Below, piece by piece: positions 8,601 to 26,899 of a DNA stretch of 64,000 bases; within the stretch, counting starts at the first letter, position 1, and every line of letters starts with the position of its first letter. Under the pieces are notes generated by a model. It was not told where the DNA came from and did not search any database. It saw only the letters and a list, made by a program, of their open reading frames with translations. The translations under genes were made by a program, and so were the position numbers. Where the stretch lies: positions 2,512 through 66,511 of the forward strand of contig JBBSMX010000004.1 of assembly GCA_038232935.1 (NCBI GenBank), read 5' to 3'. This stretch comes from Rhodothermales bacterium (lineage in GTDB: Bacteria > Bacteroidota > Rhodothermia > Rhodothermales > JANQRZ01).

Positions 8601-8696
8601 CCCCCCGCAAGCACTTGAGGATGAGTTACTTCGTGCGTATCGTGCTCCCCAGGCCCCTTCCGCCCTTTTTAGTCCTTACTCAGAGGTAGAACCCCC

Positions 8697-9218: not shown

Positions 9219-9265
9219 CCCGCTCTCCTTTATTCCGCTCACGACTAGACCTACGTAACCGCATC

Positions 9266-10801: not shown

Positions 10802-10830
10802 ATTTTTATTTTTTATAGCAGTTGTGTCCC
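10799..10830 (+). promoter_or_regulatory. AT-rich element in the tssC-hcp spacer; candidate hcp promoter/UP region
   Basis: gtaaatttttattttttatagcag sits immediately after the tssC stop. A strong SD aaggagg lies at 10929-10935, ahead of the hcp ATG. Confidence 0.25.
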
Positions 10831-10941
10831 ATGGGGAGAGGCTCCTGCGTTTCCCCCTATGACACCCGAAGCTAGTCCCGCCGGCCCCGCCGGCTGGCTT
10901 CACCCGCGTCACTCACTTACTCACAGCAAGGAGGTTTTACC

Positions 10942-11412
10942 ATGGCCCTCGAAGGCGCACTGTATTACTCGAACGACATCGTAGGCAGCAACGAAAAGGG
11001 GGGGCGCGACGGCTCCTCCGCCGTGATCGAGTTCGATCACGAAGTCTACTCCCCGACGGACACCCAGCGCGGCATCGTCAGCGGCGCGCGTGTCCACGGC
11101 AACGTCGTCTTGACGAAGGAGATCGACACGGCCTCAGCCATCCTCTACCAGGCCTGCTGCAACGGCCAGACCCTCGACGAACTCAAGGTCGAGTGGTATC
11201 GGATCAATCCGATGGGACAGGAGGAGCTTTACTTCACGCACACGCTTTCGGGTGTGAAGGTGGCAGCCGTGGAGCAGATCCTCCCGAACACGAAGGATCC
11301 CAGCAAGGAGCACTTCCGCCACCTCGAGCGTCTGAAGCTGCTTTACGAGCGGATCAACTGGAAGCACGAGGAGGGCTACGAGTTCGAGGACGCATGGAAG
11401 GACGCGCAGTAG
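10942..11412 (+). CDS. hcp: T6SS tube protein Hcp (TssD)
   Basis: 156 aa. Size and position (after tssC, before tssE) fit Hcp, as do the blocks ..VIEFDHEVYSP.., ..TKEIDTASAILYQAC... Strong SD. Confidence 0.85.
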   Translation: MALEGALYYSNDIVGSNEKGGRDGSSAVIEFDHEVYSPTDTQRGIVSGARVHGNVVLTKEIDTASAILYQACCNGQTLDELKVEWYRINPMGQEELYFTHTLSGVKVAAVEQILPNTKDPSKEHFRHLERLKLLYERINWKHEEGYEFEDAWKDAQ

Positions 11413-11432
11413 CCGCCCACCGTTCGACCCCC

Positions 11433-11487
11433 GAAAGCCGCTTCCGGTCCACGGCCCATTCCCGGTCTGGAGGATCGGGCGGCTTTC
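11433..11487 (+). terminator. Stem-loop after hcp (possible attenuator/terminator)
   Basis: gaaagccgc (11433-11441) pairs with gcggctttc (11479-11487). The loop is large and is followed by a T-containing stretch. Not a textbook terminator. Confidence 0.3.
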
Positions 11488-11515
11488 AGCGTGTCAGCTT
11501 CGGTTCGTTCTCGTT

Positions 11516-11935
11516 ATGGAAGCAAGCATCTACGACATCCTGCGGGGCACCTTCGGCGACGGGCGTCGGGTTGCGAGCGTGAGCACGGACGCGTGGCGGG
11601 AGCGGAGCATCATATCCAACCTCGACCGGCTTATGAACACGCGGCGCGGGGCACTCTCCCACCTGTCGGAGTACGGGCTGCCGGATATCTCGGACGTCTA
11701 CCGCGACATGCCGGGGTCGATCACAGAGCTTCAGCAGGCTATCGAATCCGCCGTAGAGACGTACGAACCCCGCCTGCAGCATGTCCGTGTCGAGCACCAG
11801 TCCACGGACCGGTATTCGATGCAACTCGTGTTCTTGCTGACGGCGGAGACGTTGAACGGCGAGCGCATCCGCTTCAAGACGACGTTCTCGTCGGAGGATG
11901 AGGCGCACGTGGCCCCGGTCCGAAGCGCGGATTGA
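11516..11935 (+). CDS. tssE: T6SS baseplate subunit TssE (gp25/GPW lysozyme-like)
   Basis: 139 aa. SIISNLDRLMNTRRGALSHLSEYGLPDISDVY is the typical TssE/gp25 block. Confidence 0.88.
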   Translation: MEASIYDILRGTFGDGRRVASVSTDAWRERSIISNLDRLMNTRRGALSHLSEYGLPDISDVYRDMPGSITELQQAIESAVETYEPRLQHVRVEHQSTDRYSMQLVFLLTAETLNGERIRFKTTFSSEDEAHVAPVRSAD

Positions 11936-12025
11936 CGGGTCGTTTCGCACAAGAGGGTAGGGGATGCACCGAGCGGAGCCGGGTCGGGAGGGGAAAGAAA
12001 CCGAGCGAGATCACTTGCAGCAGGT

Positions 12026-13810
12026 ATGAGTCAGCGACGCTACTACGACGAGGAGATGCGCTACCTGCACGAAGCGGGGAAGGCGTTTGCGCGCGCGCAC
12101 CCCGAGCAGGCACGCTACCTTAACATCGACAGCGTGACCGACCGCGATCCGTACGTGGAGCGCCTCTTCGAAGGCTTTGCCCTGCTGACCGGTCGCATCC
12201 GCGAGCAGCTCGACGACGAACTGCCGCAGTACACCGAGGCGCTGTGCGAACTGCTGTTCCCCCACTTCCTCCGCCCCGTTCCCTCCCTCGCGATGGTAGG
12301 GTTTCGGGGACAGGCGGGACGGCTCCGCGAGACGACGCGGCTCCCACGCGGGACTGAGGTGCAGTCCGCCCCGGTTGGAGACGAAGGCGTCGTGTGCCGG
12401 TTCGTGACGACGCAGGACGTGTTCCTCCAGCCACTCAGCCTCGACGATGTGGCGCTCGCGTGGGCACCGGACGGCACCTCGAGCGTGGCCCTCTCGCTCG
12501 GGATGGGGGCCGGCGTCAGCCTTGCAGACCTCGATCTGCGCTCGCTCCGGCTCTACTTCCACGCCGAGCCGGCGACGGCCTCGGCCATGCACTACTTCTT
12601 TACCCGTCGGGTGCGTGAGATGACCGTCGAGAGCGGTCTGCCCGGCGGGCTCTCCATCGGGTTGGAGGGGTACGGACAGAACGAGGCGCTCACACTGCGT
12701 GGGCAGGAGTGGGTCCGGCCCGGCGGCCTCGACCCGAGCGAAGCCCTGCTCCCCCAGTCCGAGCGGTCGTTCTCCGGCCTCCGGCTTATGCAGGAGATGC
12801 TGTGCTTCCGGGCGAAGTTCTGGTGCGTCGATCTCCTCGGCCTCGATCGCTTCCGCCCCGAGACTGACCACGGCGCGCTCCGCGTCACCCTCCGCTTCGA
12901 CAGGGCATTCCCTCAACCGCAGCGGTTCGGGAAAGAGCAGGTCCGGCTGTTCACGAGTCCCGTCGTCAACCTGTTCGAGACGGACGGCGAGCCTGTGCGC
13001 GTGGACCACCGGAGCGCCGAGCACCGCGTGGTCCCAGACGCGAGCCATCGCAACGGCGTTGAGGTGTACGCGGTCCGGTCGGTGACGGGGATCGAGGACG
13101 TGACGGGGCGGCGGCACTCCTACCGCTCGCTCCTCTCGCCCGAGCGGGCGGCCGGCGGGCGGACCTACACCGCGGCATCGCGCCGCGGCCTCGCCTCCCG
13201 CTACGCGACGACGCTCGCCCTCCAGGGCATCACGCCGTCGGAAGGGCGGCTCCCCGTCGAGACGCTCTCGCTCGAACTCCGCTGCACGAACGGGGCGATC
13301 CCGCGCGAGCACCTCCGGGAGCACGCCCTCAAGCGCCTCGCCTCCCAGAGCGTGCGCGGCGTCGAGGTGGATAACTTTACGCAGCCGACGCTCATCCGCT
13401 ATCCTCCTACGGACCAGCATGCGGACTTCTACTGGATGCTGCTCTCGCACTGGTCGCTCAACTACCGCTCGGCAGCCACGCCCGAGGCGCTCGCCGGGGT
13501 GCTGAGCCTCTACGACTGGACCGATTCCGCGGTCAACAAGCAGCAGATCGAAGGCATCCGCGATGTGCGGTGGGCACCGAAGGAGCGCGTCCACCGGGGA
13601 GCCGTGCTGCGCGGTAGCGAGGTCACCGTCGAACTCGACGAGACACGGTTCGCCGATGTGGGCGATGCGGCCCTGCTCGGCCTCGGGCTCAGCCGGTTCT
13701 TCTCCGCCTACGCCACCCTCAACTCGTTCGTCCACCTCACCATCCTCCTCCTGCCCTCCGGGGAGCGGATGACGTGGGAGCCCGACAGCGGCGAGCAGCC
13801 GGTGCTATGA
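12026..13810 (+). CDS. tssF: T6SS baseplate subunit TssF (ImpG/VasA)
   Basis: 594 aa. N-terminus MSQRRYYDEEMRYLHEAGKAFARAHPEQARYLN.. is typical of TssF. Synteny tssE-tssF-tssG. Confidence 0.9.
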   Translation: MSQRRYYDEEMRYLHEAGKAFARAHPEQARYLNIDSVTDRDPYVERLFEGFALLTGRIREQLDDELPQYTEALCELLFPHFLRPVPSLAMVGFRGQAGRLRETTRLPRGTEVQSAPVGDEGVVCRFVTTQDVFLQPLSLDDVALAWAPDGTSSVALSLGMGAGVSLADLDLRSLRLYFHAEPATASAMHYFFTRRVREMTVESGLPGGLSIGLEGYGQNEALTLRGQEWVRPGGLDPSEALLPQSERSFSGLRLMQEMLCFRAKFWCVDLLGLDRFRPETDHGALRVTLRFDRAFPQPQRFGKEQVRLFTSPVVNLFETDGEPVRVDHRSAEHRVVPDASHRNGVEVYAVRSVTGIEDVTGRRHSYRSLLSPERAAGGRTYTAASRRGLASRYATTLALQGITPSEGRLPVETLSLELRCTNGAIPREHLREHALKRLASQSVRGVEVDNFTQPTLIRYPPTDQHADFYWMLLSHWSLNYRSAATPEALAGVLSLYDWTDSAVNKQQIEGIRDVRWAPKERVHRGAVLRGSEVTVELDETRFADVGDAALLGLGLSRFFSAYATLNSFVHLTILLLPSGERMTWEPDSGEQPVL

Positions 13811-14856
13811 CGGAGGCCGCCTCTCATATCGCCGAGCGCGAACAGCTCGATGAGGAGCCAACGACGCAGGGCGTGACGCCGCCGGAGCGCGGCATCTACG
13901 CCGACCTGTTCCGGACAGGCTATCGGTTCGATTTCTTCCAGGCCGTCCGCCTCCTCGAAGCCTTTTTCCCCGACGCGCCCCCGCCCGGCATGAGCGCCAA
14001 CCCTGCCGCCGAGCGCATCCGCTTCCGCCCGAACCCCGCCATGGTGTTCCCGTCGTCGGACGTGCGCTCTGTGACGTTGGACGAGGACGGGGCCGAGGTG
14101 ATGGTGACGTTCATGGGACTCTACGGGATCGCCTCGCCGCTCCCGATCTACCTCTACGAGGATCTCGCCACCGAGACGGACGACACCCTCCCGCTCCGCC
14201 ACTTCCTCGACATCTTCAACCACCGGCTCTACAGCTATTTCTACCGCGCGTGGAAGAAGTACCGCCCCGGTGGGATCGCGGAGGCAGACCGTGACGACAG
14301 CACGGCCCGCTTCCTCGCCGTAGCTGGGCTCGGGACGCCGGGTGCGCTCACCGACGCCCCCGTGTCCATCGGGCGCCTCGCCGGGTTCGCCGGGCTCCTC
14401 AACCGACGCGTCCGTAACGCAGAAGGATTGTACACGTTGCTGGCCGCGTTTACCGGCGGACTGAAGCTGGAGATCATCGAGAACGTGGTGCGGCGGGTAC
14501 GGGTGACGCAGCGGCCCCGCCTCGGGGGCGGAGGGCCCTCGGCCACGCTCGGCGGATCGGCCCTCCTCGGCGCGACCGTGCTCGACGCGGGCGGCAAGTT
14601 CCGCGTCGTCCTCGGCCCGATGGGACTGAATGATTTCGAATCCTACCTGCCCGGCGGCGAGAAAGCCGAAGCGCTCGGCTACCTCGTCCACCTTTACGCG
14701 CCCGACTTCCTCGACTTCGACGTGCTCCTTCGACTCGAAACCCAACACATGCCTGCCCTCCGCCTCGGCGACCGACAGGCCCGCCTCGGCGAAAATACCT
14801 GGGTGGGTCGCCCGCCCGACGCCGTCCTCACCGAACGCATCGTCACCTACGCCTAA
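13807..14856 (+). CDS. tssG: T6SS baseplate subunit TssG (ImpH/VasB)
   Basis: The ATG at 13807 overlaps the tssF stop (ATGA). YRFDFFQAVRLLE and MVTFMGLYGIASPLPIYLYE are TssG hallmarks. The ORF is open from 13774. Confidence 0.88.
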   Translation: MTEAASHIAEREQLDEEPTTQGVTPPERGIYADLFRTGYRFDFFQAVRLLEAFFPDAPPPGMSANPAAERIRFRPNPAMVFPSSDVRSVTLDEDGAEVMVTFMGLYGIASPLPIYLYEDLATETDDTLPLRHFLDIFNHRLYSYFYRAWKKYRPGGIAEADRDDSTARFLAVAGLGTPGALTDAPVSIGRLAGFAGLLNRRVRNAEGLYTLLAAFTGGLKLEIIENVVRRVRVTQRPRLGGGGPSATLGGSALLGATVLDAGGKFRVVLGPMGLNDFESYLPGGEKAEALGYLVHLYAPDFLDFDVLLRLETQHMPALRLGDRQARLGENTWVGRPPDAVLTERIVTYA

Positions 14857-14867
14857 CTCCCATCGCC

Positions 14868-17708
14868 ATGATCTCGAAAGACCTCAAGAAGCTCCTTCAG
14901 AAACTCAACGGCACCATGACGCGCGCCCTCGAAGCAGGGGCCGGGTTCAGCATCGCGCGCGGCCACTATGAGGTCACCACCGAGCACCTGCTCGCCAAGC
15001 TGCTCGAAGCCGGCGACGGCGACCTCCCCCGCATCCTCGACCGCTTCGGCGTGGACAACGGGAAGGTGTGGGAAGCGCTCATGGCGCGTTTGGAAAGCTT
15101 TAAGACCGGCAACACGGGCCGTCCCGCGTTCTCCCCGCTCATGCTCGACCTCGTCGAGAAAGCGTGGGTGGCGGGTTCCGTGCACCACGGCGACACGGAG
15201 GTCCGCTCGGGCTACCTCTTGGAGGCGATGCTGGAGAGCGAGGGGCTGCGGATGGACGAGGTGAAGGACGTGCTCCAGCCCGTCAAAGCCGAAGCGCTCC
15301 GCGACGACTTCTTCGAGATCGTCGCCGGCTCGTCCGAGAACCAGCCGTCGCACCGTGCCGGGGGGCCGAGTGCGAGCGGAGCCGGAAAGCGCGAGGGCGA
15401 GACCGCGCTCGACCTCTACACCGAGAACATCACGCAGAAAGCGCGTGACGGGAAGATCGACCCCGTGTTCGCCCGCGACGGCGAGATCCGGCAGATGGTG
15501 GATGTGCTCAGCCGCCGGCGCAAGAACAACCCGATCCTCGTCGGCGAGGCAGGCGTCGGCAAGTCCGCCGTGCTGGAAGGGTTCGCGCTCCGGCTGGCGC
15601 AGGGCGACGTGCCGGACAGCTTGAAGGAAGTCGAGATCGTCGCGCTCGACCTCGGGCTGTTGCAGGCCGGGGCCGGGGTGAAAGGCGAGTTCGAGAACCG
15701 GCTGAAGTCCGTGATCAAAGAGGTCAAAGAGGCCCCGAAGCCGACGATCCTCTTCATCGACGAGGCGCACACGCTCATTGGCGCGGGCGGGGCGGCGGGC
15801 ACGGCCGACGCCGCGAACCTGCTCAAGCCCGCCCTCGCGCGCGGCGAGCTCCGGACGGTCGCGGCGACGACGTGGAGCGAGTACAAGAAGTACATCGAGA
15901 AGGACCCCGCCCTCGAACGCCGTTTCCAGATGATCAAGGTCGATGAACCCTCCGTCGAGGACGCGTCGACGATGATGCGCGGGATCAAGTCGAAGTACGA
16001 GGATCACCACGACGTCCAGATCACGAACGCCGCCGCGCACGCCGCCGCCGCGCTTTCGGAGCGCTACATCACCGGCCGCCAACTCCCGGACAAAGCCGTG
16101 GACCTCATGGATACGGCCTCGGCTCGCGTCAAGATGAGCCAGTCCTCGAAGCCCGGTGCCGTCGACAACATCGAGCGCCGCCTGCTCGACCTCTCCATCA
16201 CCGCGAAGGCCATGCGGCGCGACCTCGATACCGGACTCACCCACGACCACGACGCCCTCAGCGCCATCGAGGCGGAGCACACTGAGTTCGAAGGGAAGCG
16301 CGACGCCCTGCTCGCCCGGTGGGAGCAGGAGCGCGACCTCGTGAAGCAGATCGACGGCCTCCGCCGCCAGATCTCCTCCAGCATCGGCGGCGATGGTTCG
16401 GCATCGCTCACCACAGGCTCCGCGCCGGCCGATCACCAGGCCCTCCGCGCCGACCTAGACCGGCTGAGCGCCGAGCTCGCCGCGATGCAGAAGGAGGAAG
16501 CGCTCGTCCACGCCGTCGTCAACGAGCACGTCATCGCCCGGATCATTGCGGATTGGACCGGCATCCCCGTCGGCAACATGGAGCAGGACGAGGCGCAGAT
16601 GCTGCTCCAACTCGAAGACCGCCTCCGCACAGCCATCAAAGGGCAGGACGAAGCGCTCGACCAGATCGCCGACTCGATCCGCACGGCGAAGGCGGGGATG
16701 GGCAATCCCGACGCGCCGATCGCCGTGTTCCTCCTCGTCGGGCCGAGCGGGACGGGCAAGACCGAGACGGCCAAGCAGCTCGCCGAGCTATTGTTCGGCG
16801 GCGAGCGCTTCCTTATCACCATCAACATGAGCGAGTACCAGGAGGCCCACACCGTCTCCTCGCTCAAAGGCTCGCCGCCCGGCTACGTCGGCTACGGCGA
16901 GGGCGGCGTGCTCACCGAGGCCGTCCGCCAGCGCCCGTACTCCGTCGTCCTCCTCGACGAAACGGAGAAGGCGCACCTCGACGTGATGGAGCTGTTCTAC
17001 CAGGTGCTCGACAGCGGTTTCATGCGCGATGGCGAGGGCCGCGAGATCAATTTCAAGAACACCATCATCCTGATGACCTCCAACATCGGGAGCGAGACCG
17101 TCGTCGAACTCGCGACCAGAGGCGATCGGCCCGATGCCGACACGCTGCGTACGGCCATCCACCCGCAGCTCGTCCACCACTTCCAGGCCGCCCTCCTGGC
17201 CCGGATGAAGGTGGTCCCGTACTTCCCGCTCGACAAGGTGGCCATCAGCCGGATCACCCGACTCAAGCTCAACAAGATCGGAAAGCGGCTCCGCAACACG
17301 CACGGGATGGCCTTCGAGTACGGCGACGACGTCGTGGACCGCATCGCCGAGCGCTGCACGCAGGTCGATTCCGGCGCGCGCAACATCGACTTCATCATCG
17401 ACCGGACGCTGCTCCCCGAGGCCTCGCGCGCTCTCCTCGCGCAGATGGCCGACGAGCACGTGCCCGAGCGGCTCGAACTCGGCATCAACGACCGCGGCGA
17501 CTTTACCTACACTTTCGACGGCGTCCGCTATGGCGCTGGCAACAGATTGGGCACCGATGAGCCGGAAGCCATCGATGAGCCGGAAGCCATAGCTACCGAC
17601 GAGGTTTCGATGGACGGTGAGACCGAAGCGGCTGTGATGCCTTCATCGGGAGATGGTGAGGTCGGGGAAGCCAGCGAGCCTGAGCGCCCCGAGACACCCG
17701 CTGAGTAG
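14868..17708 (+). CDS. tssH: T6SS AAA+ ATPase ClpV (TssH)
   Basis: 946 aa. Clp N-domain and two Walker A motifs (GEAGVGKSA, GPSGTGKTE). Carries an acidic low-complexity C-terminal tail. Confidence 0.93.
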   Translation: MISKDLKKLLQKLNGTMTRALEAGAGFSIARGHYEVTTEHLLAKLLEAGDGDLPRILDRFGVDNGKVWEALMARLESFKTGNTGRPAFSPLMLDLVEKAWVAGSVHHGDTEVRSGYLLEAMLESEGLRMDEVKDVLQPVKAEALRDDFFEIVAGSSENQPSHRAGGPSASGAGKREGETALDLYTENITQKARDGKIDPVFARDGEIRQMVDVLSRRRKNNPILVGEAGVGKSAVLEGFALRLAQGDVPDSLKEVEIVALDLGLLQAGAGVKGEFENRLKSVIKEVKEAPKPTILFIDEAHTLIGAGGAAGTADAANLLKPALARGELRTVAATTWSEYKKYIEKDPALERRFQMIKVDEPSVEDASTMMRGIKSKYEDHHDVQITNAAAHAAAALSERYITGRQLPDKAVDLMDTASARVKMSQSSKPGAVDNIERRLLDLSITAKAMRRDLDTGLTHDHDALSAIEAEHTEFEGKRDALLARWEQERDLVKQIDGLRRQISSSIGGDGSASLTTGSAPADHQALRADLDRLSAELAAMQKEEALVHAVVNEHVIARIIADWTGIPVGNMEQDEAQMLLQLEDRLRTAIKGQDEALDQIADSIRTAKAGMGNPDAPIAVFLLVGPSGTGKTETAKQLAELLFGGERFLITINMSEYQEAHTVSSLKGSPPGYVGYGEGGVLTEAVRQRPYSVVLLDETEKAHLDVMELFYQVLDSGFMRDGEGREINFKNTIILMTSNIGSETVVELATRGDRPDADTLRTAIHPQLVHHFQAALLARMKVVPYFPLDKVAISRITRLKLNKIGKRLRNTHGMAFEYGDDVVDRIAERCTQVDSGARNIDFIIDRTLLPEASRALLAQMADEHVPERLELGINDRGDFTYTFDGVRYGAGNRLGTDEPEAIDEPEAIATDEVSMDGETEAAVMPSSGDGEVGEASEPERPETPAE
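17556..17591 (+). repeat. Tandem 18-bp duplication inside the clpV acidic tail
   Basis: gatgagccggaagccatc followed by gatgagccggaagccata, encoding DEPEAI DEPEAI. Confidence 0.9.
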
Positions 17709-17758
17709 GGCCTACATATTCCTGATCATTCTACTCGCATTACACAGGTCAGCTTACG

Positions 17759-20700
17759 ATGCCGGAAAACAGGTTCTCATTTGAGGTCCAGGCGAACGAC
17801 GGTGACTCCACGGCCAAGCCTGCCAGACCCCCCACCGTAACGAGTTTTACTGTTCTGGCGTTCGAGGGGGAAGAGAAGGTCTCGCAGCCGTTCGAGTACC
17901 GGCTCGTCCTCGCCTATGAAAAAACGACCATCGATTTTGAGAAGGTGGTAAACCAGAATGCCACCCTCACGATGGAGTTGGTTGAGGTCTCAGCGGCCCC
18001 GACGACGGCCAGCAATGCAGCTAGCTCTACGGCAAGCACTACGACCAAGAGCAAGAAGGTCGTAAAGGGGATCGTGTCGAGCTTTCGGGTAACGCAGCAA
18101 CTCGACGACGGTCAACTGGAGTGCGAGGCAGTCCTCGTCCCCAAGCTGTGGCGGCTCGGGATGTTCTACCGGAGTCGGGTGTTTCAAGGCCTCACGGTGG
18201 TGGAGATCGTCGATAAGGTTTTGGGTCAGGACCTCGCCCCCCTCACCCAGGACCAGCTGGATGCAGCGGACTTGCTCGGCGGTGTTCCCGACACGAACAA
18301 TGTCCCCGCGCTCATCAAAGGGACGGACTACGACTTCAAGTTCACGGACCCGGTGGCGTTCGTGTATCCGAAGAGGGAGTTCGTCATGCAGTACCAAGAG
18401 ACCGACCTTGATTTCTTCCAGCGCTTGATCGAGGACATCGGGATCTATTACTATTTCGACGGTGGGAAGCTCATCTTTAACGATTCCAAGAGCCTACACC
18501 CTGACATAACGGGGAATAAAAGTGTAAAGTATCAGAAGGCGATGGCACCGGCTAAAGACCGCATATACCGCTTCGTGAGCAACGAGCGCGTGGTGCCTAA
18601 GACCGTTTCAGTCAGGGATTACGACTACGAGGCGTTCTCCCAGCACGCGAGCAAAAACATAGACACGAACACCACGAGTGCGGGAAATGACTACGCTCGT
18701 GTGGGGACCTACACCGAGCACGGACGATACGCTGTGGCGGACCGGGGGTGGGTGGGCCTGAAGACCGGTAAGGACGGTGATGGGATTCCTGCTGATCCTG
18801 TTACGAATGCCGAGGATAATCGCGTCAGCCGCTTGAAGCGCATCGCCCTCGTCCGGGCCGAAGAGCTCGAGGCGCAGCGAGAGCGGGGAGACGGGCTGTC
18901 GAACGTGTCGCGGCTCCAGGCGGGCCACGTCTTCACACTGGCCGGTCACTTCCTCACCCCGGTTAACGGGGACTACTTCATCACCTCGGTGCGTCACCGC
19001 TACGCCAAGGTCGCAACGAAGGTAAGGGAGACAATCAAGGTAAAAGACAAAGAACACACCGTAGAGCACACAGAGGAGAATCTGGTCTACGAGAACGAGT
19101 TCACCTGCCTGCCGGCTGGGATACAGTACCGCCCACCTCGCGTCACCCCAATTCCCCGCGTTCCCGGCATTATGACGGCGACGGTGAAGAATGACGACAA
19201 GATGGCCTACCTCGACGAGGAGGGTCGCTACCGCGTTCAGTTCCCCTTCGACCCTGCTCCCGAAGCTGGACCGTACAAGGGGAGTGAGGCCAAAAACCCC
19301 TCACGCCCGATCCGCCTCGCCCAGCCTTACGCTGGGAAGGATTTCGGGATGCACTTCCCCAACCGTGACAATGTGGAGATGGTGTTCGCCTGTCTCGACG
19401 GTGATCCCAACCGCCCTCTCGGCCTTTCCGTCGTCCCTACCCCCTGGATGCACTCGCCGGTCCCCAATACTGAACTCAAGCTAATCTCTCAGAACCCCGT
19501 AGCCGGCTCAGCTGCCTCTGCCGCTACTCAGGGGGGATCGGCCTGGGACGAGACCACCTTCGACGAGCTCAAAAACGTGATCCGCACGGCGGTCGGACAC
19601 CAGATTGTGATGGACGACGGCGATCCGGGGTCGAGTGTAGGCATCACGATTCAAACCGGGAAGTCGGAGAACGCCGCCGGGCGGGATCTGCACTGGAGCA
19701 GCAAGATCGAGATGGGCGGCTATCGCCACATGAGTCCCGTCGAACAAGCCTTCGGGATCGCCAGTCATACCATCGGGTGGCTCAAGACCGGCTTGAGCCG
19801 GGACTACCCTGGTCTCGCTTCGGGTGCCCTCGGGGCAGTAGCGTCGGCGGTCAACACCAACAACTACCTCGATGACACCTACGGGACTACGACACCGGTA
19901 GGAATTAACATAGCTACAAATAAAAATGTTGATATAACAGGAAAAGATGGAGTCAATATAACGTCACCCAACTTGTTTGGAATGTTTAGCTCTAGTCTGA
20001 TGGGTGAAGATAGTATAACGAAAAGAAGTCAATATTATGCAGAGGCTATATCGAAATTTGTTGTTAATACCGTTTGGCAGGATCTCGTAAGTAATACAGC
20101 CGAGCTGGCAGATGGACTAGCCGATAATATCAAGGATTACTCTAAAAAAGGGTATCCACACCCGCTGGGACAAGCGTTGTTGAACTGGCGGTCCAACATC
20201 ATAGATCAGCGCATTAGCGCTTTGTTTTTCACACTACTCCAGCGCACGGGAGTCAACATCTCCTCTATGGGCGAACTGAAGTTGACGTCGCTCCAAAGCA
20301 CGGCCGTCGCAGCAGGGCAGGGGGGGCTCACCCTGAATTCGTACGGAGGCATCGAGCAAAAGGCCGACCTCGATGTCAAGATTGAAGCTGCGCAAGGCAT
20401 CCGCATCGCTGCTGGAGGGGAGCGCTATAAGACGGACGGAATCCTAGGGGTCGTGGGGAAAAGAGCAAAGCCCTTTCTGCCCGTGCTAAAAGCCATTCAA
20501 TTTGTCTCGTCTTTGGGAGAGCGCCTAGGGCGAAAGAAGGAATACAACGAGGCGGAGTATCCTATAGAATTGGAAAACGAACAGGGTTCTATTTTCATTC
20601 ATACCGGTGGGCCTGACGAAGATGGGAAGGGCAATATTCTGATCCAGACCGAAGGGACGGGTGATATCAAAGCGTTTGCTAACAAAGAAAAGATTCATGG

Positions 20701-21190
20701 ATTTTCTACGAAGGAAGTCGTCTTCGAAGTTGGCGACCGTGAGGGCCTTAAGGACGAGGCTGTGCTGAAGCAATACGACGACGCGAAGAAGGGAAGCAAG
20801 CTGGGTACCCGCATCAAGCAGACGGACAAGGTCGTTGATGTCTTTGGGAAAGACGAAGTCATGCTCAGCACGATGAAAGATGGGAGCGAATCCTACCTCA
20901 AGATCAAAAAGGGAGATGAGATCGAGATCAAGTGCGGGCAGGCCAGCATCGTGCTGAAGAAAAACGGTGACATCACGTTCAAAGGCACGAATATCAAACT
21001 TGACGCGATGCAGAACATCGACGCGAAGGGCATGGACGTGAAGGTGAGCGCACAGAAGGAAGTGAGCATCAAGGGCGAACTGGGAGTCAAGACCGAGGGC
21101 GGCATTACAAATGATGTGAAAGGGGTCATGGTAACGCTCGATGGGACGATGACGGTTGTCAAGGGAAGCCTTGTCAAGGTGGGTTCCTAA
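17759..21190 (+). CDS. vgrG: T6SS spike protein VgrG (TssI) with about 550-aa C-terminal extension
   Basis: N-terminal VgrG core (FTVLAFEGEEKVSQPFEYRLVL, RPIRLAQPYAGKDFGMHFPNRDNVEMVFACLDGDPNRPLGL). The long Lys/Ile/Asn-rich beta-helix-like tail ends ..EIEIKCGQASIVLKKNGDITFKG..VKVGS. GC content is markedly below the flanks. Confidence 0.9.
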   Translation: MPENRFSFEVQANDGDSTAKPARPPTVTSFTVLAFEGEEKVSQPFEYRLVLAYEKTTIDFEKVVNQNATLTMELVEVSAAPTTASNAASSTASTTTKSKKVVKGIVSSFRVTQQLDDGQLECEAVLVPKLWRLGMFYRSRVFQGLTVVEIVDKVLGQDLAPLTQDQLDAADLLGGVPDTNNVPALIKGTDYDFKFTDPVAFVYPKREFVMQYQETDLDFFQRLIEDIGIYYYFDGGKLIFNDSKSLHPDITGNKSVKYQKAMAPAKDRIYRFVSNERVVPKTVSVRDYDYEAFSQHASKNIDTNTTSAGNDYARVGTYTEHGRYAVADRGWVGLKTGKDGDGIPADPVTNAEDNRVSRLKRIALVRAEELEAQRERGDGLSNVSRLQAGHVFTLAGHFLTPVNGDYFITSVRHRYAKVATKVRETIKVKDKEHTVEHTEENLVYENEFTCLPAGIQYRPPRVTPIPRVPGIMTATVKNDDKMAYLDEEGRYRVQFPFDPAPEAGPYKGSEAKNPSRPIRLAQPYAGKDFGMHFPNRDNVEMVFACLDGDPNRPLGLSVVPTPWMHSPVPNTELKLISQNPVAGSAASAATQGGSAWDETTFDELKNVIRTAVGHQIVMDDGDPGSSVGITIQTGKSENAAGRDLHWSSKIEMGGYRHMSPVEQAFGIASHTIGWLKTGLSRDYPGLASGALGAVASAVNTNNYLDDTYGTTTPVGINIATNKNVDITGKDGVNITSPNLFGMFSSSLMGEDSITKRSQYYAEAISKFVVNTVWQDLVSNTAELADGLADNIKDYSKKGYPHPLGQALLNWRSNIIDQRISALFFTLLQRTGVNISSMGELKLTSLQSTAVAAGQGGLTLNSYGGIEQKADLDVKIEAAQGIRIAAGGERYKTDGILGVVGKRAKPFLPVLKAIQFVSSLGERLGRKKEYNEAEYPIELENEQGSIFIHTGGPDEDGKGNILIQTEGTGDIKAFANKEKIHGFSTKEVVFEVGDREGLKDEAVLKQYDDAKKGSKLGTRIKQTDKVVDVFGKDEVMLSTMKDGSESYLKIKKGDEIEIKCGQASIVLKKNGDITFKGTNIKLDAMQNIDAKGMDVKVSAQKEVSIKGELGVKTEGGITNDVKGVMVTLDGTMTVVKGSLVKVGS

Positions 21191-21222
21191 GCTAATAACC
21201 ACTCGATACGGAGAAATACGGT

Positions 21223-21552
21223 ATGCCGAAACCTGCTGCCCAGCTCGCTGACAACGCCGCCCACGGCCCGCCACTCCTCGGTGCAGGCCAGCCGACGGTG
21301 CTCATCGCCAACCGTCCCGCGTGGTGCGTCGGCGACAACCACACGTGCCCGATCCCGAACGCGCCGCCGCCGGTCGGGCCGGGGACGCCGCACGGGCCGG
21401 GCATCACCGCGCCGCCGGGGGCCATCACCGTCCTCATCAACAACAAGCCCGCCGCAGCCCTCGGCGATATGGTGATGGAGCCGGGGGCCGTCATGCCGCC
21501 GATGATCCCGAACCCGATCGTGATGGGCGCGCCGACCGTGCTCGTAGGCTGA
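21223..21552 (+). CDS. PAAR-domain spike-tip protein
   Basis: 109 aa, Gly/Pro-rich. GQPTVLIANRPAWCVGDNHTCP and ITVLINNKPAAALGDMV..GAPTVLVG are PAAR-like blocks. Sits between the two vgrG genes. Confidence 0.85.
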   Translation: MPKPAAQLADNAAHGPPLLGAGQPTVLIANRPAWCVGDNHTCPIPNAPPPVGPGTPHGPGITAPPGAITVLINNKPAAALGDMVMEPGAVMPPMIPNPIVMGAPTVLVG

Positions 21553-21691
21553 GATAATCCGTTCGCTCGGCCTACGGTTATGGCCTGCTTGAACAGGCCT
21601 CTGCCGTCTTCCTCGTAACATAGACACAGATCGCGCACACCGCCGGATTTCGACGTGCCGCGGGTTGCGTTTCAACCGATTCCGAACTGTC

Positions 21692-24229
21692 ATGGCTACG
21701 AGTGCTGCGAACGAATCTCGCTTCTTTTTTAGCAACCCTGATATCCCACAGGAAGAACTCGAGGTCGTCGACTTCGTCGGCCGCGAGGCGATCTCTCAAC
21801 TCTCTCGCTTCGAACTGAACCTGGTGTCGAAGAACCCATCGGTGCCGTTCTCCGACGTCGTTGATCGTCCCGCGATGCTCACGATGCAGGCGGGTACGGA
21901 CCGATCGTACGTCCATGGCGTCGTAGCGGACTTTCAGCAGGGGAGCCCGGTCGGCGACTATTTCAGCTACCGAGCTGTGCTCGTCCCGCGACTGTGGCGA
22001 CTGTCCCTCACCTACCAGAGCCGGGTCTTCCAGCACCTCAGCGTGCCCGAGATCGTGCGGCAGGTGTTGCAGGAGAGCGGCTATGCCTCGGACGACTTCC
22101 GTTTCGGGCTCACGGCCAGCTATCAGCCACGGGAGTACTGCACGCAGTATCAGGAGACCGACCTCGCCTTCCTCTCCCGCCTGCTCGAATACGAAGGCAT
22201 CCAGTTCTTCTTCGAACAGGAGGAGGAGCGGGAGGTCCTCGTGCTGACCGACAACCGGGGCGAGAACCCGCCGATCGGTAGCGAGAACGCGAAGGTGATC
22301 TACCGGCCCTCCAGCGGGATGGTGCCGGCCCACGAGGAAACGGTGCGCGAGTTCGTCTTTCGGGAGCAGGCCGTCACGGGGCGCGTCGTGCTAAAGGATT
22401 ACAACTACCGGACGCCGGATGCGGACATCCGGGCCGAATTCCAGATCAGCGATGAACTGTCGGGCGTCCACTACGAATACGGCTCAAACATCAAGGATGC
22501 CGGAGAGGCCGAGCGGCTTGCGCGCGTCCGCAACGAGGAGATCGAGTGCCGGCGGCGGTTGGCTACGGGCGAGGGGACCAGCATGTATCTCCGGGCCGGT
22601 CACCACTTCACCCTCGACAAGCACTACCGCCTCGACCTCAACCAGTCCTATCTCGTGACCGAGGTCACGCACTACGGATCGCAACGCGGCCTCGTGTCGA
22701 TGCAGGTCGGTGAGGATGCCGCGATGCCCTACCGCAACGTCTTCACATGCGTCCCTGTCTCCGTACAGTTCCGCCCGCTGCGCGTCACGCCCGAGCCGAA
22801 GCTGCCCGGCATCATGACGGCCAAGGTTGAGTCCGGTGGCGGAGACTACGCCTACCTCGACGACGAGGGGCGCTACCGCATCAAGATGCCCTTCGACCTC
22901 GCCGAGACCGAGCAGGCCGGAGCGTCGAAGCCTATCCGGCTCGCGCAGCCCTACGCCGGGGCCGACTACGGGATGCACTTCCCCGTCCACGCCGACGCCG
23001 AGATGGTCTTCGCCTGCGTGGACGGCAACGTGGACCGTCCCCTCGGCCTCTCGACCGTGCCCAATCCCGCGCAGGGATCGCCGGTGAAGGGCGAAAACCA
23101 CACCCGGAACGTGATCCGCACAGCCTCCAAAAACGAGATCTACATGGAGGATGAAGTGGGGAACGAGCGGATCAAGATCGAATCCCCCTACAAGAACAGC
23201 ATCTTACAACTCGGCTCGCCCAACGTCGCGGCCGACGGCGTGTGCCTCACGACCGACGGGGCAACTGCCGTCCACGGAAAGGAAGGCGTATTCATCTCGG
23301 CGTGGGGCAGCATCGACCCCTCGCAGAGCTTGGCAGCGTGGAAGGCCGGCCTCTCGGTTCTGGACGGGAGCATGGGGGTGGTCGCTGCGGCTCTGGGGCT
23401 CCGACCCTTGTCGCTGCTGTCGGCGACGAACTTCGCTGGTTCGTTTGCAAGCCTTGTGACGGGCGTTCTGGGGCAGGGTGCTTACATCACGGCCCCGCAC
23501 GGCGTCGGTCTCTATTCGAGCACGAGCGTTTCCGCCGTGGCAGGCGCGGGAGGGATCGGCCTGTACAGCGCTGCCGGCGCGGACATCTGCTCGGCAGCAG
23601 GAATTTATCTGGGGACCGTGGCAGGCGGCGTTCATATCGGGGCCGCGCAAGGCGGCGTGAAGGTCGCGGCCGGCATAGGCAACATCGAAATCGAAACCAA
23701 GACAGACGACATCGTCCTGACCACGAAGCTGGGCAACATCAAGCTGGACGCGTTCGACAAAATGAGTCTTGCTGCTGGAACGGGTAGGGTCCGGATCGAG
23801 AGTGAGTCTGACAAGCTGGAGTGCGAGGCCCGGAAGGATATCGAGATCAAGTCGAGAGAGGGTAACGTGCGAGTGGAAGCTGATCAGGCTGTAAACATCA
23901 AAAGCTCCCAGGAGCGAGTGGTGATCGAAGCGGAAAAGGAAATCGTTCTCAAATGTGGCGACACCACGCTTAAGATCAGCCCGGACGGGATCGACCTCGA
24001 TACGAAGAACTACGTCGAAGTGAAGTCGGGCGGAAGTGTGAACGCCTATGCGGGCGGAAGCCGGGGGCCGGCTCTGCTCATGGGCGCGAGCGGTTCCTTC
24101 AGCATCGCAAACAACATGGCTGCTTATTCCTTGGACACGAGCGGTAAAGCCGCGATCAGTGCAGTTCAAGTCGATATCAATGCGAAAGCCATGGCCCAAT
24201 TAAAGGCCGCGCTCACTAAGGTCGGCTAA
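21692..24229 (+). CDS. vgrG: Second T6SS spike protein VgrG (TssI)
   Basis: LEVVDFVGREAISQLSRFELNLVS and KPIRLAQPYAGADYGMHFPVHADAEMVFACVDGNVDRPLGL. The C-terminal beta-helix ends ..EIVLKCGDTTLKISPDGIDL..LTKVG. The ORF is open from a TTG at 21665; the ATG at 21692 is preferred. Confidence 0.9.
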   Translation: MATSAANESRFFFSNPDIPQEELEVVDFVGREAISQLSRFELNLVSKNPSVPFSDVVDRPAMLTMQAGTDRSYVHGVVADFQQGSPVGDYFSYRAVLVPRLWRLSLTYQSRVFQHLSVPEIVRQVLQESGYASDDFRFGLTASYQPREYCTQYQETDLAFLSRLLEYEGIQFFFEQEEEREVLVLTDNRGENPPIGSENAKVIYRPSSGMVPAHEETVREFVFREQAVTGRVVLKDYNYRTPDADIRAEFQISDELSGVHYEYGSNIKDAGEAERLARVRNEEIECRRRLATGEGTSMYLRAGHHFTLDKHYRLDLNQSYLVTEVTHYGSQRGLVSMQVGEDAAMPYRNVFTCVPVSVQFRPLRVTPEPKLPGIMTAKVESGGGDYAYLDDEGRYRIKMPFDLAETEQAGASKPIRLAQPYAGADYGMHFPVHADAEMVFACVDGNVDRPLGLSTVPNPAQGSPVKGENHTRNVIRTASKNEIYMEDEVGNERIKIESPYKNSILQLGSPNVAADGVCLTTDGATAVHGKEGVFISAWGSIDPSQSLAAWKAGLSVLDGSMGVVAAALGLRPLSLLSATNFAGSFASLVTGVLGQGAYITAPHGVGLYSSTSVSAVAGAGGIGLYSAAGADICSAAGIYLGTVAGGVHIGAAQGGVKVAAGIGNIEIETKTDDIVLTTKLGNIKLDAFDKMSLAAGTGRVRIESESDKLECEARKDIEIKSREGNVRVEADQAVNIKSSQERVVIEAEKEIVLKCGDTTLKISPDGIDLDTKNYVEVKSGGSVNAYAGGSRGPALLMGASGSFSIANNMAAYSLDTSGKAAISAVQVDINAKAMAQLKAALTKVG

Positions 24230-24234
24230 CAGCA

Positions 24235-26895
24235 ATGCCGCTTCGCGCCGATATCGCTACGGGGGAGACCACGCTCGACCGGACTGACCTCCGGTTGGAG
24301 GGGGCGCTCCCGCTCGTGCTGGCTCGGCAGTACCGCAGCGGGGCGCCGGCCGGCATCTTCGGCGTCGGCTGGAGGCACGGGCTGGACCGGACGCTCCGCG
24401 TCGAGGCCGACCGGGTGGTCTACCGCGACGGCTCGGGGCGGGAGACCATCTTTGCGCCCGTCGGGGTGGGGATGGAGGCACGACACCCCGAGGGGCTGAC
24501 GCTCCAGCGTCACGCCGACGTGTGGGTGGTGTTTGCCTCGCCGCTCGCGCAGGAGGTCTTCCGCAAGGGGACAGGCAGCGGGCCGCTGCCGCTCGAACGG
24601 ATCGTAGACCCGAACGGCAATCGGATGAAACTGGGGTACACGAGCGGGCGGCTCGCCGAGATCACCGGCTCGGGCGGGCAGCGCATCCGGTTCGTGTACG
24701 CCGGCGGGGTCGTAGGGCAGATCGTGATCACCGGCGCGGACGGACGGGCGAGCGCGGTGCGGACGTTCCGCTACGGGGCGGGCAACACGCTCGTGGCCGA
24801 GACCGACGCGGCGGGGCGAACGACGGAGTACGCATACCAGGACGGCCTGCTCGTCCGTGCCGGTTCGGCGGGCGCGGCGTGGCTCGCGCAGTACGACGGC
24901 GATCGCCGCTGCATCGCCCTCTGGCACTCCGACGCCACCGCTGCGACCCACCTCGCCTACGACGCGCTTCGGCAGACGACGCGCGCCGTAGGCCTCGACG
25001 GGCGGCAGGCGCTCTATCGCTACGCCCCCGGCGCGGCGGGCACCGTCGTGCTCGAACGGATCGACGCCGAGGGCGAGAGCCTCAACTACTACTACGACGA
25101 GGCGCAGCGGCTCATCGGCTACTCCGCGCCCGGCGGCACCGTCGTCACGTTCCAGCGGCTGGATCCGGCAAAGGGGGAGCGCTTTCAGGTCGATTACGAA
25201 AGCCGTTTTTCGAACGCCGTGCTCGGACCGGGCGGTCTCATCGAAACGATAAACGGTTCCTCCGGGGGCGCTTTCGCGTTCGGCTACGACGAGCGCTTCA
25301 GCCTCGTGCGTCTCACGACGCCGCTCGGAGCGACGTGGACGTTCGAGCGAGACGGGAAGGGACGCGCCTCGGCCCTCATGAGCCCCGCTGGTCGGCGCAT
25401 TGGTCTCCGTCGTGAGGGTGTGACGCTTTTCGTGGAGGATGCCGAGGGCCTCCGCCTCCGCCTCACGTTCGACCTCCTCGGGCGGATCGCCGCGCGCACG
25501 GACCGGCTCGGCCGCGAGCAGCGTTTCCGCTACGACGCCGAAGGGCGGCTCATCAGTGTGGCGGTCGGCGACGGATATAGCGTGACGTGGGACTACGACG
25601 GGGCTGGTCGGCTCGTGCGCCTCGTGGATTCCGAGCGTGCCGAGATCCGCCGATCGCACGACGCGGCAGGCCGCGTGCTTACCGCCGAGTCGGATCGTGG
25701 CGCGGTACGCTTCACGTACGATCTCGCCGGGCGAATCCACGGTGTCGAAGGAGCCGGAGGCAAGGTCGGATTCGCCTACGACGAGCAGGACCGTCTCCTC
25801 CGCGCTGAAGGCCCCGGCGGCACGACCGTCTTCACCTATGAGGGGAGCGAGACGACCGTGACGACCGGCGACCGGCGCGAGGTCTACAGCGCGCACGGCG
25901 AGCCGCTCGAAGAGCACGCGCCCGACGGTAGCGCCCGGCGCTTCCAGTACGGTGCGGCCGGCGAGCTGCTTACAGTCGAGCACGACGTGGGAGACGAGAC
26001 GACGACCCTGCTCTTCGACTACGACGACGACGGTCGCCTCGTCAGCGCCGAACGCAGCGGCGCGGCCGTCGCGCTCGGCTACGATCTCGACGGCTTGCTG
26101 ACGACGGTGGAGAACGACGACCGCACGCTCCGCCTCGACTACGACGCCCGACTCCGCCCCGCCACGCTCCACCTCGGTGAGGCGGCCTATCGCTTTGCCT
26201 TCGACGACGGCGACCGGTTGACCGCGTTGAGCGGAGAGGAAACGGGCTGCACGTTCCAGTACGACACGCTCGACCGATGCACGGCGTTTCGCACGGGCCA
26301 CGAGGCGGAGCAGCGGACGACAGTCGGCACCGTCGAGCGTGTGCCGCTGGCGGACGGGCTGTTCGTGCTCGTCGCGCCGCGCGGTGCCGCGCTCGTCGCG
26401 GAGACCGACACCCTCGCGCTCCCACTGTGGGGGCAGGAGGAAATGCGGCTGCCGGAGCTTTCCCTCGAGGCACGGATCGTCCGAGCGCTCGTCCGCGGAC
26501 CGGAGGCGGCGCTTGCGTCTCCGCCCGAAGGGCCGGGGCCGCCGGTCGAGCGGTGGCAGGGGCTTGTACAGGCGGAAGGGTTCGAGACCGGACTCCCCAG
26601 TGCGACGGCACTCGGCTTGCCCTGGCCTGCGCTCGATTTCTTCGCCCTCGCCCGTAACCGCTACGATCCGCACTTCACCCGGCGGCGCGCGGGTGCCTTC
26701 CCGCACCACCAGCCCGATGGCGCTCGCGCCCCCGACGCCGCGCCCACCGGCTCCCATCGGACGGGCGTGCTCCAACCACCCGTGTGGGCCGAGCGCGCGC
26801 ACGGTACCCACCTCACGGCCATCCTACTCGCCTCGCCCGGCGGGGTCCCCGACACCCTCGCGCTCCGGCTCTACCGGACGCTCACACGCCCCTGA
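24235..26895 (+). CDS. Rhs/YD-repeat protein (DUF6531-like N-terminus), short, no recognisable C-terminal toxin boundary
   Basis: 886 aa. N-terminus ..ATGETTLDRTDLRLEGALPLVLARQYRS..GVGWRHGLD... Many YD repeats (RFRYDAEGRLISV, WDYDGAGRLVRLVD, FTYDLAGRIHGV, FAYDEQDRLLRAEG, FDYDDDGRLVSAE). Starts 5 nt after vgrG2. Confidence 0.85.
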   Translation: MPLRADIATGETTLDRTDLRLEGALPLVLARQYRSGAPAGIFGVGWRHGLDRTLRVEADRVVYRDGSGRETIFAPVGVGMEARHPEGLTLQRHADVWVVFASPLAQEVFRKGTGSGPLPLERIVDPNGNRMKLGYTSGRLAEITGSGGQRIRFVYAGGVVGQIVITGADGRASAVRTFRYGAGNTLVAETDAAGRTTEYAYQDGLLVRAGSAGAAWLAQYDGDRRCIALWHSDATAATHLAYDALRQTTRAVGLDGRQALYRYAPGAAGTVVLERIDAEGESLNYYYDEAQRLIGYSAPGGTVVTFQRLDPAKGERFQVDYESRFSNAVLGPGGLIETINGSSGGAFAFGYDERFSLVRLTTPLGATWTFERDGKGRASALMSPAGRRIGLRREGVTLFVEDAEGLRLRLTFDLLGRIAARTDRLGREQRFRYDAEGRLISVAVGDGYSVTWDYDGAGRLVRLVDSERAEIRRSHDAAGRVLTAESDRGAVRFTYDLAGRIHGVEGAGGKVGFAYDEQDRLLRAEGPGGTTVFTYEGSETTVTTGDRREVYSAHGEPLEEHAPDGSARRFQYGAAGELLTVEHDVGDETTTLLFDYDDDGRLVSAERSGAAVALGYDLDGLLTTVENDDRTLRLDYDARLRPATLHLGEAAYRFAFDDGDRLTALSGEETGCTFQYDTLDRCTAFRTGHEAEQRTTVGTVERVPLADGLFVLVAPRGAALVAETDTLALPLWGQEEMRLPELSLEARIVRALVRGPEAALASPPEGPGPPVERWQGLVQAEGFETGLPSATALGLPWPALDFFALARNRYDPHFTRRRAGAFPHHQPDGARAPDAAPTGSHRTGVLQPPVWAERAHGTHLTAILLASPGGVPDTLALRLYRTLTRP

Positions 26896-26899
26896 CCCC

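Follow-up and report, generated by a model that had tools for sequence, protein, structure and literature searches.

A GC-poor spike gene in a Rhodothermales type VI secretion cluster as a candidate recombination cassette

Why should a single gene within an otherwise GC-rich secretion cluster be strikingly poor in guanine and cytosine (GC)? This question is raised by a 64,000-nucleotide stretch of DNA from a Rhodothermales bacterium (contig JBBSMX010000004.1, positions 2,512 to 66,511; hereafter the window, whose numbering we use throughout), which carries a type VI secretion system (T6SS) cluster. The gene in question, vgrG1 (17759-21190, + strand), is predicted to encode a long-type VgrG/TssI spike protein of 1143 amino acids (aa). 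A sequence-only reading of the window had taken it to be compositionally foreign and had proposed the recent horizontal replacement of a spike gene or of its C-terminal module, possibly by an evolved VgrG with an effector or adaptor domain of its own. Our analysis bears out the compositional anomaly and leads to another account of it: vgrG1 is probably a resident hypervariable cassette whose alleles belong to a pool exchanged by homologous recombination, with a short patch of very low GC as an imported tract.

The GC content of the 64-kb window is 0.666 (66.6%), with a standard deviation of 0.054 among 200-bp windows. The lowest 60-, 200-, 500- and 1000-bp GC windows of all 64 kb lie in vgrG1, where the 200-bp minimum of 0.345 is found at 19901. 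The gene as a whole has a GC content of 0.555 and a GC content at third codon positions (GC3) of 0.69, compared with a GC3 of 0.77-0.93 for the 32 other genes of the window. Along vgrG1, GC3 mostly stays at ~0.65-0.85, falls abruptly to 0.25-0.40 at aa 700-800 and is ~0.5 at aa 880-980. The depression sets in upstream of the gene, as GC3 in the tail of clpV decreases from 0.93 to 0.62-0.68 from ~17500 onwards. It covers the entire vgrG1 and stops at the PAAR gene (GC 0.724, GC3 0.89). These profiles reproduce the extent given in the sequence-only reading, from the acidic clpV tail through all of vgrG1 to the return of normal GC at PAAR, and its hand counts (20 of 60 G+C for the lines starting at 19921 and 19981, 40 of 60 for that at 24241) are all exact.

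The genes encoding TssB, TssC and Hcp (8697-11412) have a GC content of only 0.61-0.63, yet their GC3 is 0.87-0.93. Their dip is an effect of amino-acid composition and provides an internal control for the anomaly of vgrG1. Because these genes retain a high GC3 while being GC-poor, amino-acid composition alone is insufficient for vgrG1, in which GC3 and codon adaptation drop too, and we rejected it as the sole cause. Low expression is also an unlikely cause, as the genes for PAAR, TssM, TssA and TagF stay high in GC3. Atypical base composition and codon usage, by which genomic islands are recognized, are both found in vgrG1, and its compositional anomaly is thus confirmed and statistically strong.

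To see whether such a gene is peculiar to the window, one has to turn to its relatives, which are few. A search of 5.8 billion proteins yielded ~19 relatives of full length, which measure 1055-1204 aa, share 38-56% identity and all come from metagenomes, some labelled Rhodothermales; the closest full-length allele is 54-56% identical to vgrG1. Eleven further alleles were compared at the DNA level (loci L001, L002, L005 and L007-L015, including a second copy in L010). Peptide-pattern scans with the internal module of the protein (see below) gave four loci in GTDB genomes and one in JGI metagenomes, and most other alleles were fetched singly. In all relatives with enough flank (L001, L002, L009, L010, L011, L012 and L013), a long vgrG lies between clpV and PAAR. 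By this conserved position, vgrG1 is the resident spike of this type of cluster and not an inserted island. In the window, the genes upstream are those for TssK (C-terminal part), TssM, TagF, TssA, TssB, TssC, Hcp, TssF, TssG and ClpV, and downstream of vgrG1 follow PAAR (32 nt on), an RHS-repeat protein, DUF2169, Fha, PppA and PpkA; we take this to be a complete T6SS main cluster with proteobacterial-type core genes (TssM/IcmF, TssA), as judged from gene content. The order TssF-TssG-ClpV-long VgrG-PAAR-Rhs-..-DUF2169-fused TssBC is kept in L009, L010 and L011 and partly in L001, L002, L008 and L012. No integrase or transposase open reading frame (ORF) was found between clpV and Rhs, and no significant flanking repeats in 17000-24500.

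The relatives also share the low GC content. The long vgrG lies below its flanks in all eight loci with measured flanks and additionally in L014 and L015, e.g. 0.571 against 0.690 in L011, 0.532 against 0.677 in L012, 0.654 against 0.732 in L009 and 0.502 against 0.627 in L015, and its GC3 is under that of the adjacent PAAR gene in 10 of 12 loci. Lower GC in all sampled loci is therefore a property of the allele pool and not the mark of one recent event in the window. The presence of a long, low-GC vgrG at the same position in relatives thus speaks against an island, and the divergence described below speaks against vertical descent of the allele. One locus, L010 from a Rhodothermales metagenome-assembled genome (MAG), contains two tandem long vgrG genes before PAAR (6001-9438 and 9621-13094 of that locus). 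The second lacks the SPNLFGMF motif (see below), with no more than 27-30% identity to any of the others, so that gene gain, too, occurs in the clpV-PAAR interval.

While the position of the gene is conserved, its sequence is not. The TssF, TssG, ClpV and PAAR proteins of the window share 73-92% aa identity with those of L001, L002, L009, L010, L011 and L012, and PAAR in particular 90-92% with L001, L002, L005, L010, L011 and L013. VgrG1, however, shares no more than 41-50% with its positional counterpart, the long VgrG, in L001, L002 and L009-L012 (for L010 taken over the alignable extension), relatives with flanks of 81-92% identity. BLASTN to the relatives aligned 12026-17708 at 81-85% and PAAR at 79-89%; conservation restarts at 24232-24240 and continues from 24235 onward at 70-82%. 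Within vgrG1, only scattered fragments of 63-72% were obtained. The upstream alignments stop in the clpV tail, at 17533 for L001 and at 17523 for L009. In 100-bp steps, nucleotide identity amounts to 0.85-0.98 at 16500-17500, ~0.5-0.6 at 17500-21200 and 0.8-0.9 at 21300-21500. At the clpV edge it drops at ~17500 from 0.85-0.98 to 0.5-0.7 against L001, L002, L009, L010 and L011, and over the last kilobase of clpV it reaches 95-98% against L002, L010 and L011. The limits of the divergent interval (~17500 and ~21200) coincide with those of the GC-depressed interval.

The 5' edge falls into the 3' end of clpV, which encodes an acidic, repeat-containing tail (17500-17708, + strand). An 18-nt tandem repeat at 17552-17587 (94% identical) encodes DEPEA-type repeats of this tail and is placed exactly where identity to the relatives begins to fall. 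At the other edge, the PAAR gene (21223-21552, + strand; PF05488, 2.3e-13), at which native GC resumes, would serve the cassette as its conserved arm on the 3' side.

Pairwise identity matrices and segment comparisons, by which we judged incongruence and mosaicism, show that VgrG and PAAR do not follow the same history. The PAAR proteins of L010 and L013 are 98% identical while their VgrGs share 39%; for L005 and L007 the corresponding values are 63% and 69%. Moreover, the alleles are mosaics. P0013 and P0016 have tails that are 97% identical on cores of 46% identity, P0012 and P0016 have cores of 88% and tails of 25%, and for P0005 and P0007 identity is 94% in the core and 100% in the tail, yet no more than 35% at aa 1001-1050. 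Different parts of vgrG1 likewise resemble different alleles: the core is nearest to P0002, P0003 and P0004 (63-65% at aa 1-420, 71-79% at aa 421-560), aa 1001-1050 resemble only P0004, P0007, P0013 and P0017, and the tail (aa 1086-1143) is 67% identical to P0008 and ~30% to most others. Co-variation of PAAR with the type of spike tail was considered and rejected, as PAARs are 90-98% identical across alleles with differing tails. These comparisons support the spike gene as the one part of the cluster that departs from vertical descent. With conserved arms, a sharp drop in identity, incongruence and mosaic alleles, vgrG1 has the features of a putative recombining cassette. Of the earlier proposal, the part that stands is that the spike turns over by horizontal transfer or recombination; that an extension with an effector was acquired recently and in a single event does not stand.

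The most deviant part of vgrG1 is small. A likelihood change-point scan on GC3 with 100 permutations delimited an ultra-low-GC patch of 273 bp at 19886-20158 (+ strand; codons 710-800), in which GC3 is 0.30 versus 0.73 elsewhere in vgrG1 (log-likelihood ratio (LLR) 32.9; permutation maximum 12.0, n = 100). Codon adaptation was referenced to the other genes of the window (816 windows of 40 codons) and falls at aa 701-780 under every one of the 816; the deviation asserted by the sequence-only reading is thus strong in sliding-window GC as well as in codon usage. The codon ATA occurs 5 times in 88 codons, as against a frequency of 0.93 per 1000 among the reference genes. On its 5' side the patch has a sharp edge (~10-20 bases wide at ~19890), which lies where a conserved block begins. 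In the family alignment, this block reads DDT(Y/F)GxTTPVG..TNKNV.VTGKDGVNITSPNLFGMFS, with G728-S744 nearly all invariant. The patch codes first for this most conserved motif of the family (TTPVG..GKDGVNITSPNLFGMFS), which contradicts its earlier reading as a novel appended module, and then for an allele-specific, divergent stretch. The low-GC tract reaches ~55 codons past the SPNLFGMF motif into this non-conserved stretch. In the 3' half of the patch (aa 772-821), vgrG1 has an identity of 0.27-0.36 to other alleles, compared with 0.57-0.58 among those alleles, and is thus about twice as divergent from them as they are among themselves. Reading frame and invariant family residues are unbroken across the patch. 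The same scan detected a second, weaker low-GC3 zone (20381-20731, + strand; codons 875-991), which belongs to the variable region of the module (GC3 0.51 versus 0.75, LLR 13.7). It overlaps excess divergence, as identity to other alleles is here 0.56-0.66 of those alleles' mutual identity.

We therefore favor the following explanation. The compositional anomaly, the synteny, the coinciding limits of divergence and GC, the incongruence with PAAR and the mosaic alleles are shown by the data, while we infer from them how recombination took place, in which direction DNA was transferred and where the patch came from. The 3' end of clpV and the PAAR gene would act as conserved arms for the exchange of vgrG alleles. 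Divergent alleles would move between related lineages from a shared, GC-poorer pool, whose GC lies below that of any sampled host, and further recombination within vgrG would shuffle segments among alleles. The 273-bp patch would then be a short tract that entered at the conserved motif by conversion from an AT-richer allele outside our sample; a crossover at its 5' edge is plausible because similarity between alleles peaks at this motif. Low GC3 at the same motif in only some alleles (see below) is what one would expect if an AT-rich version spreads by gene conversion. One may speculate that the spike is diversified in order to match cargo or adaptors.

Several points weigh against this explanation. 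No donor or near-identical allele was found for either the gene or the patch: among 10 alleles, the best identities in the patch are 0.57-0.74 for nucleotides and 0.6-0.87 for amino acids, a homologue search with the 146-aa patch peptide returned just 16 candidates (word index) and one fragment, too few to be informative, and a plasmid collection searched as DNA and as protein gave no match. All sampled hosts are GC-rich (flanks 0.61-0.73), with no known low-GC member that could supply DNA of 34% GC. The lower GC of all alleles could stem from an intrinsic process in a fast-evolving gene instead of transfer, and the recurrent low GC3 at the motif in 5 of 11 alleles could reflect selection on the nucleotide sequence. 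Furthermore, all sequences are metagenome assemblies, and only ~30 family members exist in the databases.

The first of these objections to be taken further is that the gene evolved in situ at an accelerated pace, without any transfer. Mutation in GC-rich bacteria is AT-biased, and a fast-evolving gene under weak codon selection drifts to lower GC; diversifying or relaxed selection would thus lower the GC of vgrG1, with the patch and the second low-GC3 zone as its fastest-drifting parts. The absence of a donor among the alleles and collections searched fits this idea, as do the GC content of vgrG under that of its flanks in all alleles, whatever the host, and the overlap of the low-GC3 zones with zones in which the vgrG1 allele is unusually divergent. 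However, ~50% aa divergence directly beside a nearly identical clpV end is hard to reach by mutation, and neither the incongruent similarities of VgrG and PAAR nor segments of 97-100% identity within alleles whose cores are 46% identical are expected from it. The patch itself has an abrupt 5' edge, and its GC3 minimum lies in the invariant motif, i.e. at the site of slowest amino-acid evolution. Moreover, one PAAR caps one VgrG trimer in the T6SS, and PAAR, although similarly few per apparatus, has kept its high GC3. Evolution in situ is therefore an unlikely explanation in our judgement.

A different objection is that the AT-rich tract is there for its own sake. It seems quite unlikely to us that the tract is a nucleotide-level feature maintained in this long-VgrG family, either as a preferred crossover site through which alleles could shuffle their spike modules or as a programmed translational pause during assembly of an unusual, helix-studded spike, and that the ~450-aa module is a novel type of spike extension that itself serves in docking cargo or penetrating membranes. 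Improbable, too, is a tract of AT-rich, rare codons selected as a nucleotide feature, be it a translational pause for folding or trimerization of the beta-helix or a site of low structure in mRNA or DNA. This idea draws on the 33-codon motif being significantly low in GC3 not only in the window but also in L011 (0.36), L012 (0.33), L002 (0.61) and L008 (0.67), and on its being the third-lowest window of relative GC3 across ten other alleles. In addition, ATA recurs at the invariant isoleucines 718, 726 and 734 (19910, 19934 and 19958) in 3-4 alleles each. The alleles with ATA at aligned isoleucine columns are those of L001, L008, L011, L012 and L013, some of which are otherwise GC3-rich, and such recurrence is seen in one further alignment column only (aa 875). 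Yet 5 of 11 alleles (L005, L007, L009, L010 and L013) have no dip at the motif, with GC3 at 0.94 in L009 and L010. The tract furthermore extends well beyond the motif into the non-conserved stretch, and neither promoter- nor terminator-like signals above shuffled expectation nor an alternative or overlapping ORF of 33 aa or more were found in the patch.

That the patch is a chimera of metagenome assembly, in which a bubble was resolved via reads of a co-occurring strain or species, is very improbable: although the window derives from a MAG contig and the Logan contig from the same run (SRR24807093; L006) breaks within clpV (16982) and within PAAR (21369), hinting at strain-level branching, the two assemblies are identical over 16982-21369 and hence across both patch edges, frame and invariant residues are intact, and a chimera would presuppose an AT-rich allele whose k-mers match exactly on either side of the patch and that would itself be a near-identical recombinant in the community. 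The ends of the Logan contig bracket the cassette and could reflect branching of the assembly graph owing to co-occurring vgrG alleles in the sample.

This leaves the proposal that vgrG1 is an evolved VgrG whose C-terminal extension, gained as a module, is an effector or adaptor domain of its own. The protein exceeds canonical VgrGs by ~450 aa, and its extra region carries predicted helices and no annotated family, which would suit such a role. Its predicted architecture is nevertheless that of a structural spike. The gp27-like hub is recognized by PF05954 (Phage_GPD; E = 3e-58, 197.9 bits, cut-off 30.1) at aa 39-416 and by TIGR03361 (9e-70, 235.7 bits, cut-off 186.35). Together with the gp5 OB-fold region it would span 17873-19438 (+ strand; aa ~39-560). 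PF04717 has no match in vgrG1; aa 444-562 align with the OB-fold region of the second VgrG of the window, vgrG2, which is itself PF04717-positive; the two proteins align through the OB-fold motifs up to aa 562, and several members of the long-VgrG family bear a precomputed PF04717 match. At its end, vgrG1 has a putative C-terminal beta-helix spike tip (20816-21187, + strand), which ends in ..VKVGS and is made of segments that alleles have in shuffled combinations. When the PDB was searched with a profile of the extension, its last ~120 aa matched spike chains of VgrGs and contractile injection systems, namely the Francisella VgrG 6u9e (7.5e-6), the spike protein 7b5h, 7q5p and VgrG1 4mtk/4uhv, and hhalign gave a probability of 80% for the vgrG1 tip versus the vgrG2 tail. 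NF041249 scored 26 bits on aa 1051-1133, far under its cut-off of 100. The tip is thus predicted to form a trimeric beta-helix. Hub, C-terminal tip and a place in a T6SS cluster next to a PAAR gene mark vgrG1 as a VgrG/TssI spike, with a putative OB-fold.

The extra region is positioned between these parts. The family-specific internal module (19547-20758, + strand; aa ~597-1000) is predicted to comprise the start of a beta-helix, helical inserts, the SPNLFGMF block, a DUF2345-like block and a variable region. The low-GC part had been described as a C-terminal extension; it is instead internal, ahead of an ordinary spike tip that PAAR would cap, and not a terminal appendage. No Pfam family above threshold and no PDB sequence match was obtained for the ~450-aa module. 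DUF2345 (PF10106) is detected below threshold at aa 831-879 (19.4 bits, cut-off 30.7, E ~1e-3, in 6 of 9 members), a signal that suggests a structural beta-helix extension. AlphaFold models of the extension reached mean values of the predicted local distance difference test (pLDDT) of 36.6 (547 aa, 9 sequences) and 46.9 (336 aa, 16 sequences) and were, at this low confidence, used for secondary structure only; they predict beta segments broken up by long helices. In our favored reading, the module would therefore be a structural element of ~450 aa between the gp5 OB-fold and the tip, built from beta-helix segments, helical inserts and the DUF2345-like block. It is conserved family-wide along with the core. 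Searches with Pfam, NCBIfam and PDB profiles revealed no toxin, enzymatic, effector or known adaptor domain in vgrG1, and no immunity-like gene lies directly downstream, where PAAR follows. An evolved VgrG is thus hardly credible. The family itself is small: the extension profile found the module in just 17 clusters at 50% identity among 1.84 billion representatives, in which more than 1000 other matches cover the spike tip only. vgrG1 thus has a long-VgrG architecture that is rare and uncharacterised, with the SPNLFGMF block invariant inside the module.

Canonical VgrGs have ~650 aa, and evolved VgrGs carry an enzymatic extra domain appended after the spike. The V. cholerae proteins VgrG1-ACD and VgrG3 are evolved VgrGs with C-terminal effector domains. 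P. aeruginosa VgrG2b is a further evolved VgrG with a C-terminal effector domain (cited in PMC11751169). vgrG1 of the window resembles these in being much longer than the canonical form; unlike them, it has its extra region before the tip and as part of the family architecture, with no recognisable catalytic domain. vgrG1 can also be compared with DUF2345-type VgrGs, among them vgrG2; in enteroaggregative Escherichia coli (EAEC), a DUF2345 and TTR extension of VgrG1 binds Tle1. In vgrG1 of the window as in vgrG2, a core of gp27 and predicted gp5 type leads into an extended beta-helix, and the two share, besides the weak DUF2345 similarity, the same E-I-x-x-K-C-G ... K-V-G tip, which the sequence-only reading had pointed out and which is present along with the peptides it quoted. 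In contrast to vgrG2, which passes PF10106 with 74.9 bits, vgrG1 fails its gathering score, belongs to a tiny family and contains in its module helical inserts that are predicted to be long, as well as the SPNLFGMF block, which is invariant.

Exchange of parts of vgrG genes has precedents. Short gene-conversion tracts yield mosaic genes, e.g. mosaic pbp genes and pilin cassettes. The patch is like these in that it spans a few hundred bases, is foreign in composition, has one sharp edge and leaves the reading frame intact, and unlike them in that neither a donor nor a silent cassette was found. In auxiliary clusters of V. cholerae, the 3' ends of vgrG genes are reportedly exchanged. The same kind of exchange has been described for the vgrG islands of P. 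aeruginosa, in which homologous or homology-facilitated recombination replaces vgrG 3' ends along with the genes for effector and immunity proteins (PMC11751169). The window shares with these systems the replacement of vgrG segments, divergent alleles between conserved flanks at one locus, mosaic alleles and a composition that departs from the surrounding cluster. It differs in that variation affects the entire main-cluster spike but spares PAAR and the Rhs N-terminus, which are conserved, that the exchange would take place among relatives at the level of genus or family (~83% flank nucleotide identity) and not among strains of one species, that no effector-immunity pair visibly travels with the variable part, and that the architecture of vgrG1 is itself a rare, unannotated variant. 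As vgrG modules of atypical GC are already known from Pseudomonas and Vibrio to be exchanged by recombination, the general significance of the locus is moderate, and vgrG1 illustrates well a type of evolution described before and is not a new system. Nonetheless, composition alone singled out a hypervariable, apparently recombined gene in an otherwise vertically conserved secretion cluster. In this T6SS of the Rhodothermales type, the diversified part is the spike itself and not only the effector tips, and the ~450-aa module is a reasonable target for structural studies of how spikes carry cargo.

The gene inserted at this locus is not vgrG1 but vgrG2. It encodes a DUF2345-type VgrG of 845 aa (21692-24229) and lies on a stretch between PAAR and Rhs (21553-24234, + strand). 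In L001, L002, L009, L010 and L011, Rhs starts at most ~40 nt after the PAAR stop codon, compared with ~2.7 kb in the window. vgrG2 is thus absent from this position in the relatives and is the true, lineage-specific insertion. No mobility gene is visible within 21553-24234. The vgrG2 family is large and common, with a best homologue of 68% identity and 1324 matches at E <= 1e-30. The gene has a GC content of 0.621 and a GC3 of 0.80, with dips to 0.55-0.59 at both ends; its composition is nearer to that of the host than is that of vgrG1, although it is not fully native, contrary to what was stated earlier. The intuitive view of the locus is thereby reversed: the GC-poor gene is the resident and the better-matched vgrG2 the insertion.

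Beyond the insertion, the conserved region resumes with a gene for a DUF6531/RHS-repeat protein (24235-26895, + strand; PF20148 and RHS repeats). This protein has only 886 aa (DUF6531 plus RHS repeats), and no toxin domain can be recognised at its C-terminus. Next come a pentapeptide-repeat ORF (within 26339-27949) and the gene for the DUF2169 protein; gene starts in 24235-29013 are uncertain, as the ORFs overlap. Downstream of DUF2169, a gene at 29031-30857 encodes a 608-aa protein that joins a VipA/TssB domain (aa 26-160) in a single chain to the N-terminal domain of VipB/TssC (aa 222-487). This fused TssBC gene is additional to canonical TssB (8697-9218) and TssC (9266-10801) and is also found in L009 and L011; we know of no described role for such a second, fused sheath-like protein. 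A regulatory set is encoded at 30904-35539, namely a PP2C phosphatase, a Ser/Thr kinase bearing three PEGA domains and an FHA-SLT (lytic transglycosylase) fusion; such a fusion is uncommon among T6SS Fha proteins. Further along the contig, beta-helix and subtilase proteins with C-terminal sorting domains of the type IX secretion system (T9SS) are encoded at 49858-52188 (+ strand) and 57978-61568 (- strand), and these predicted sorting domains support an origin of the contig from Bacteroidota/Rhodothermota.

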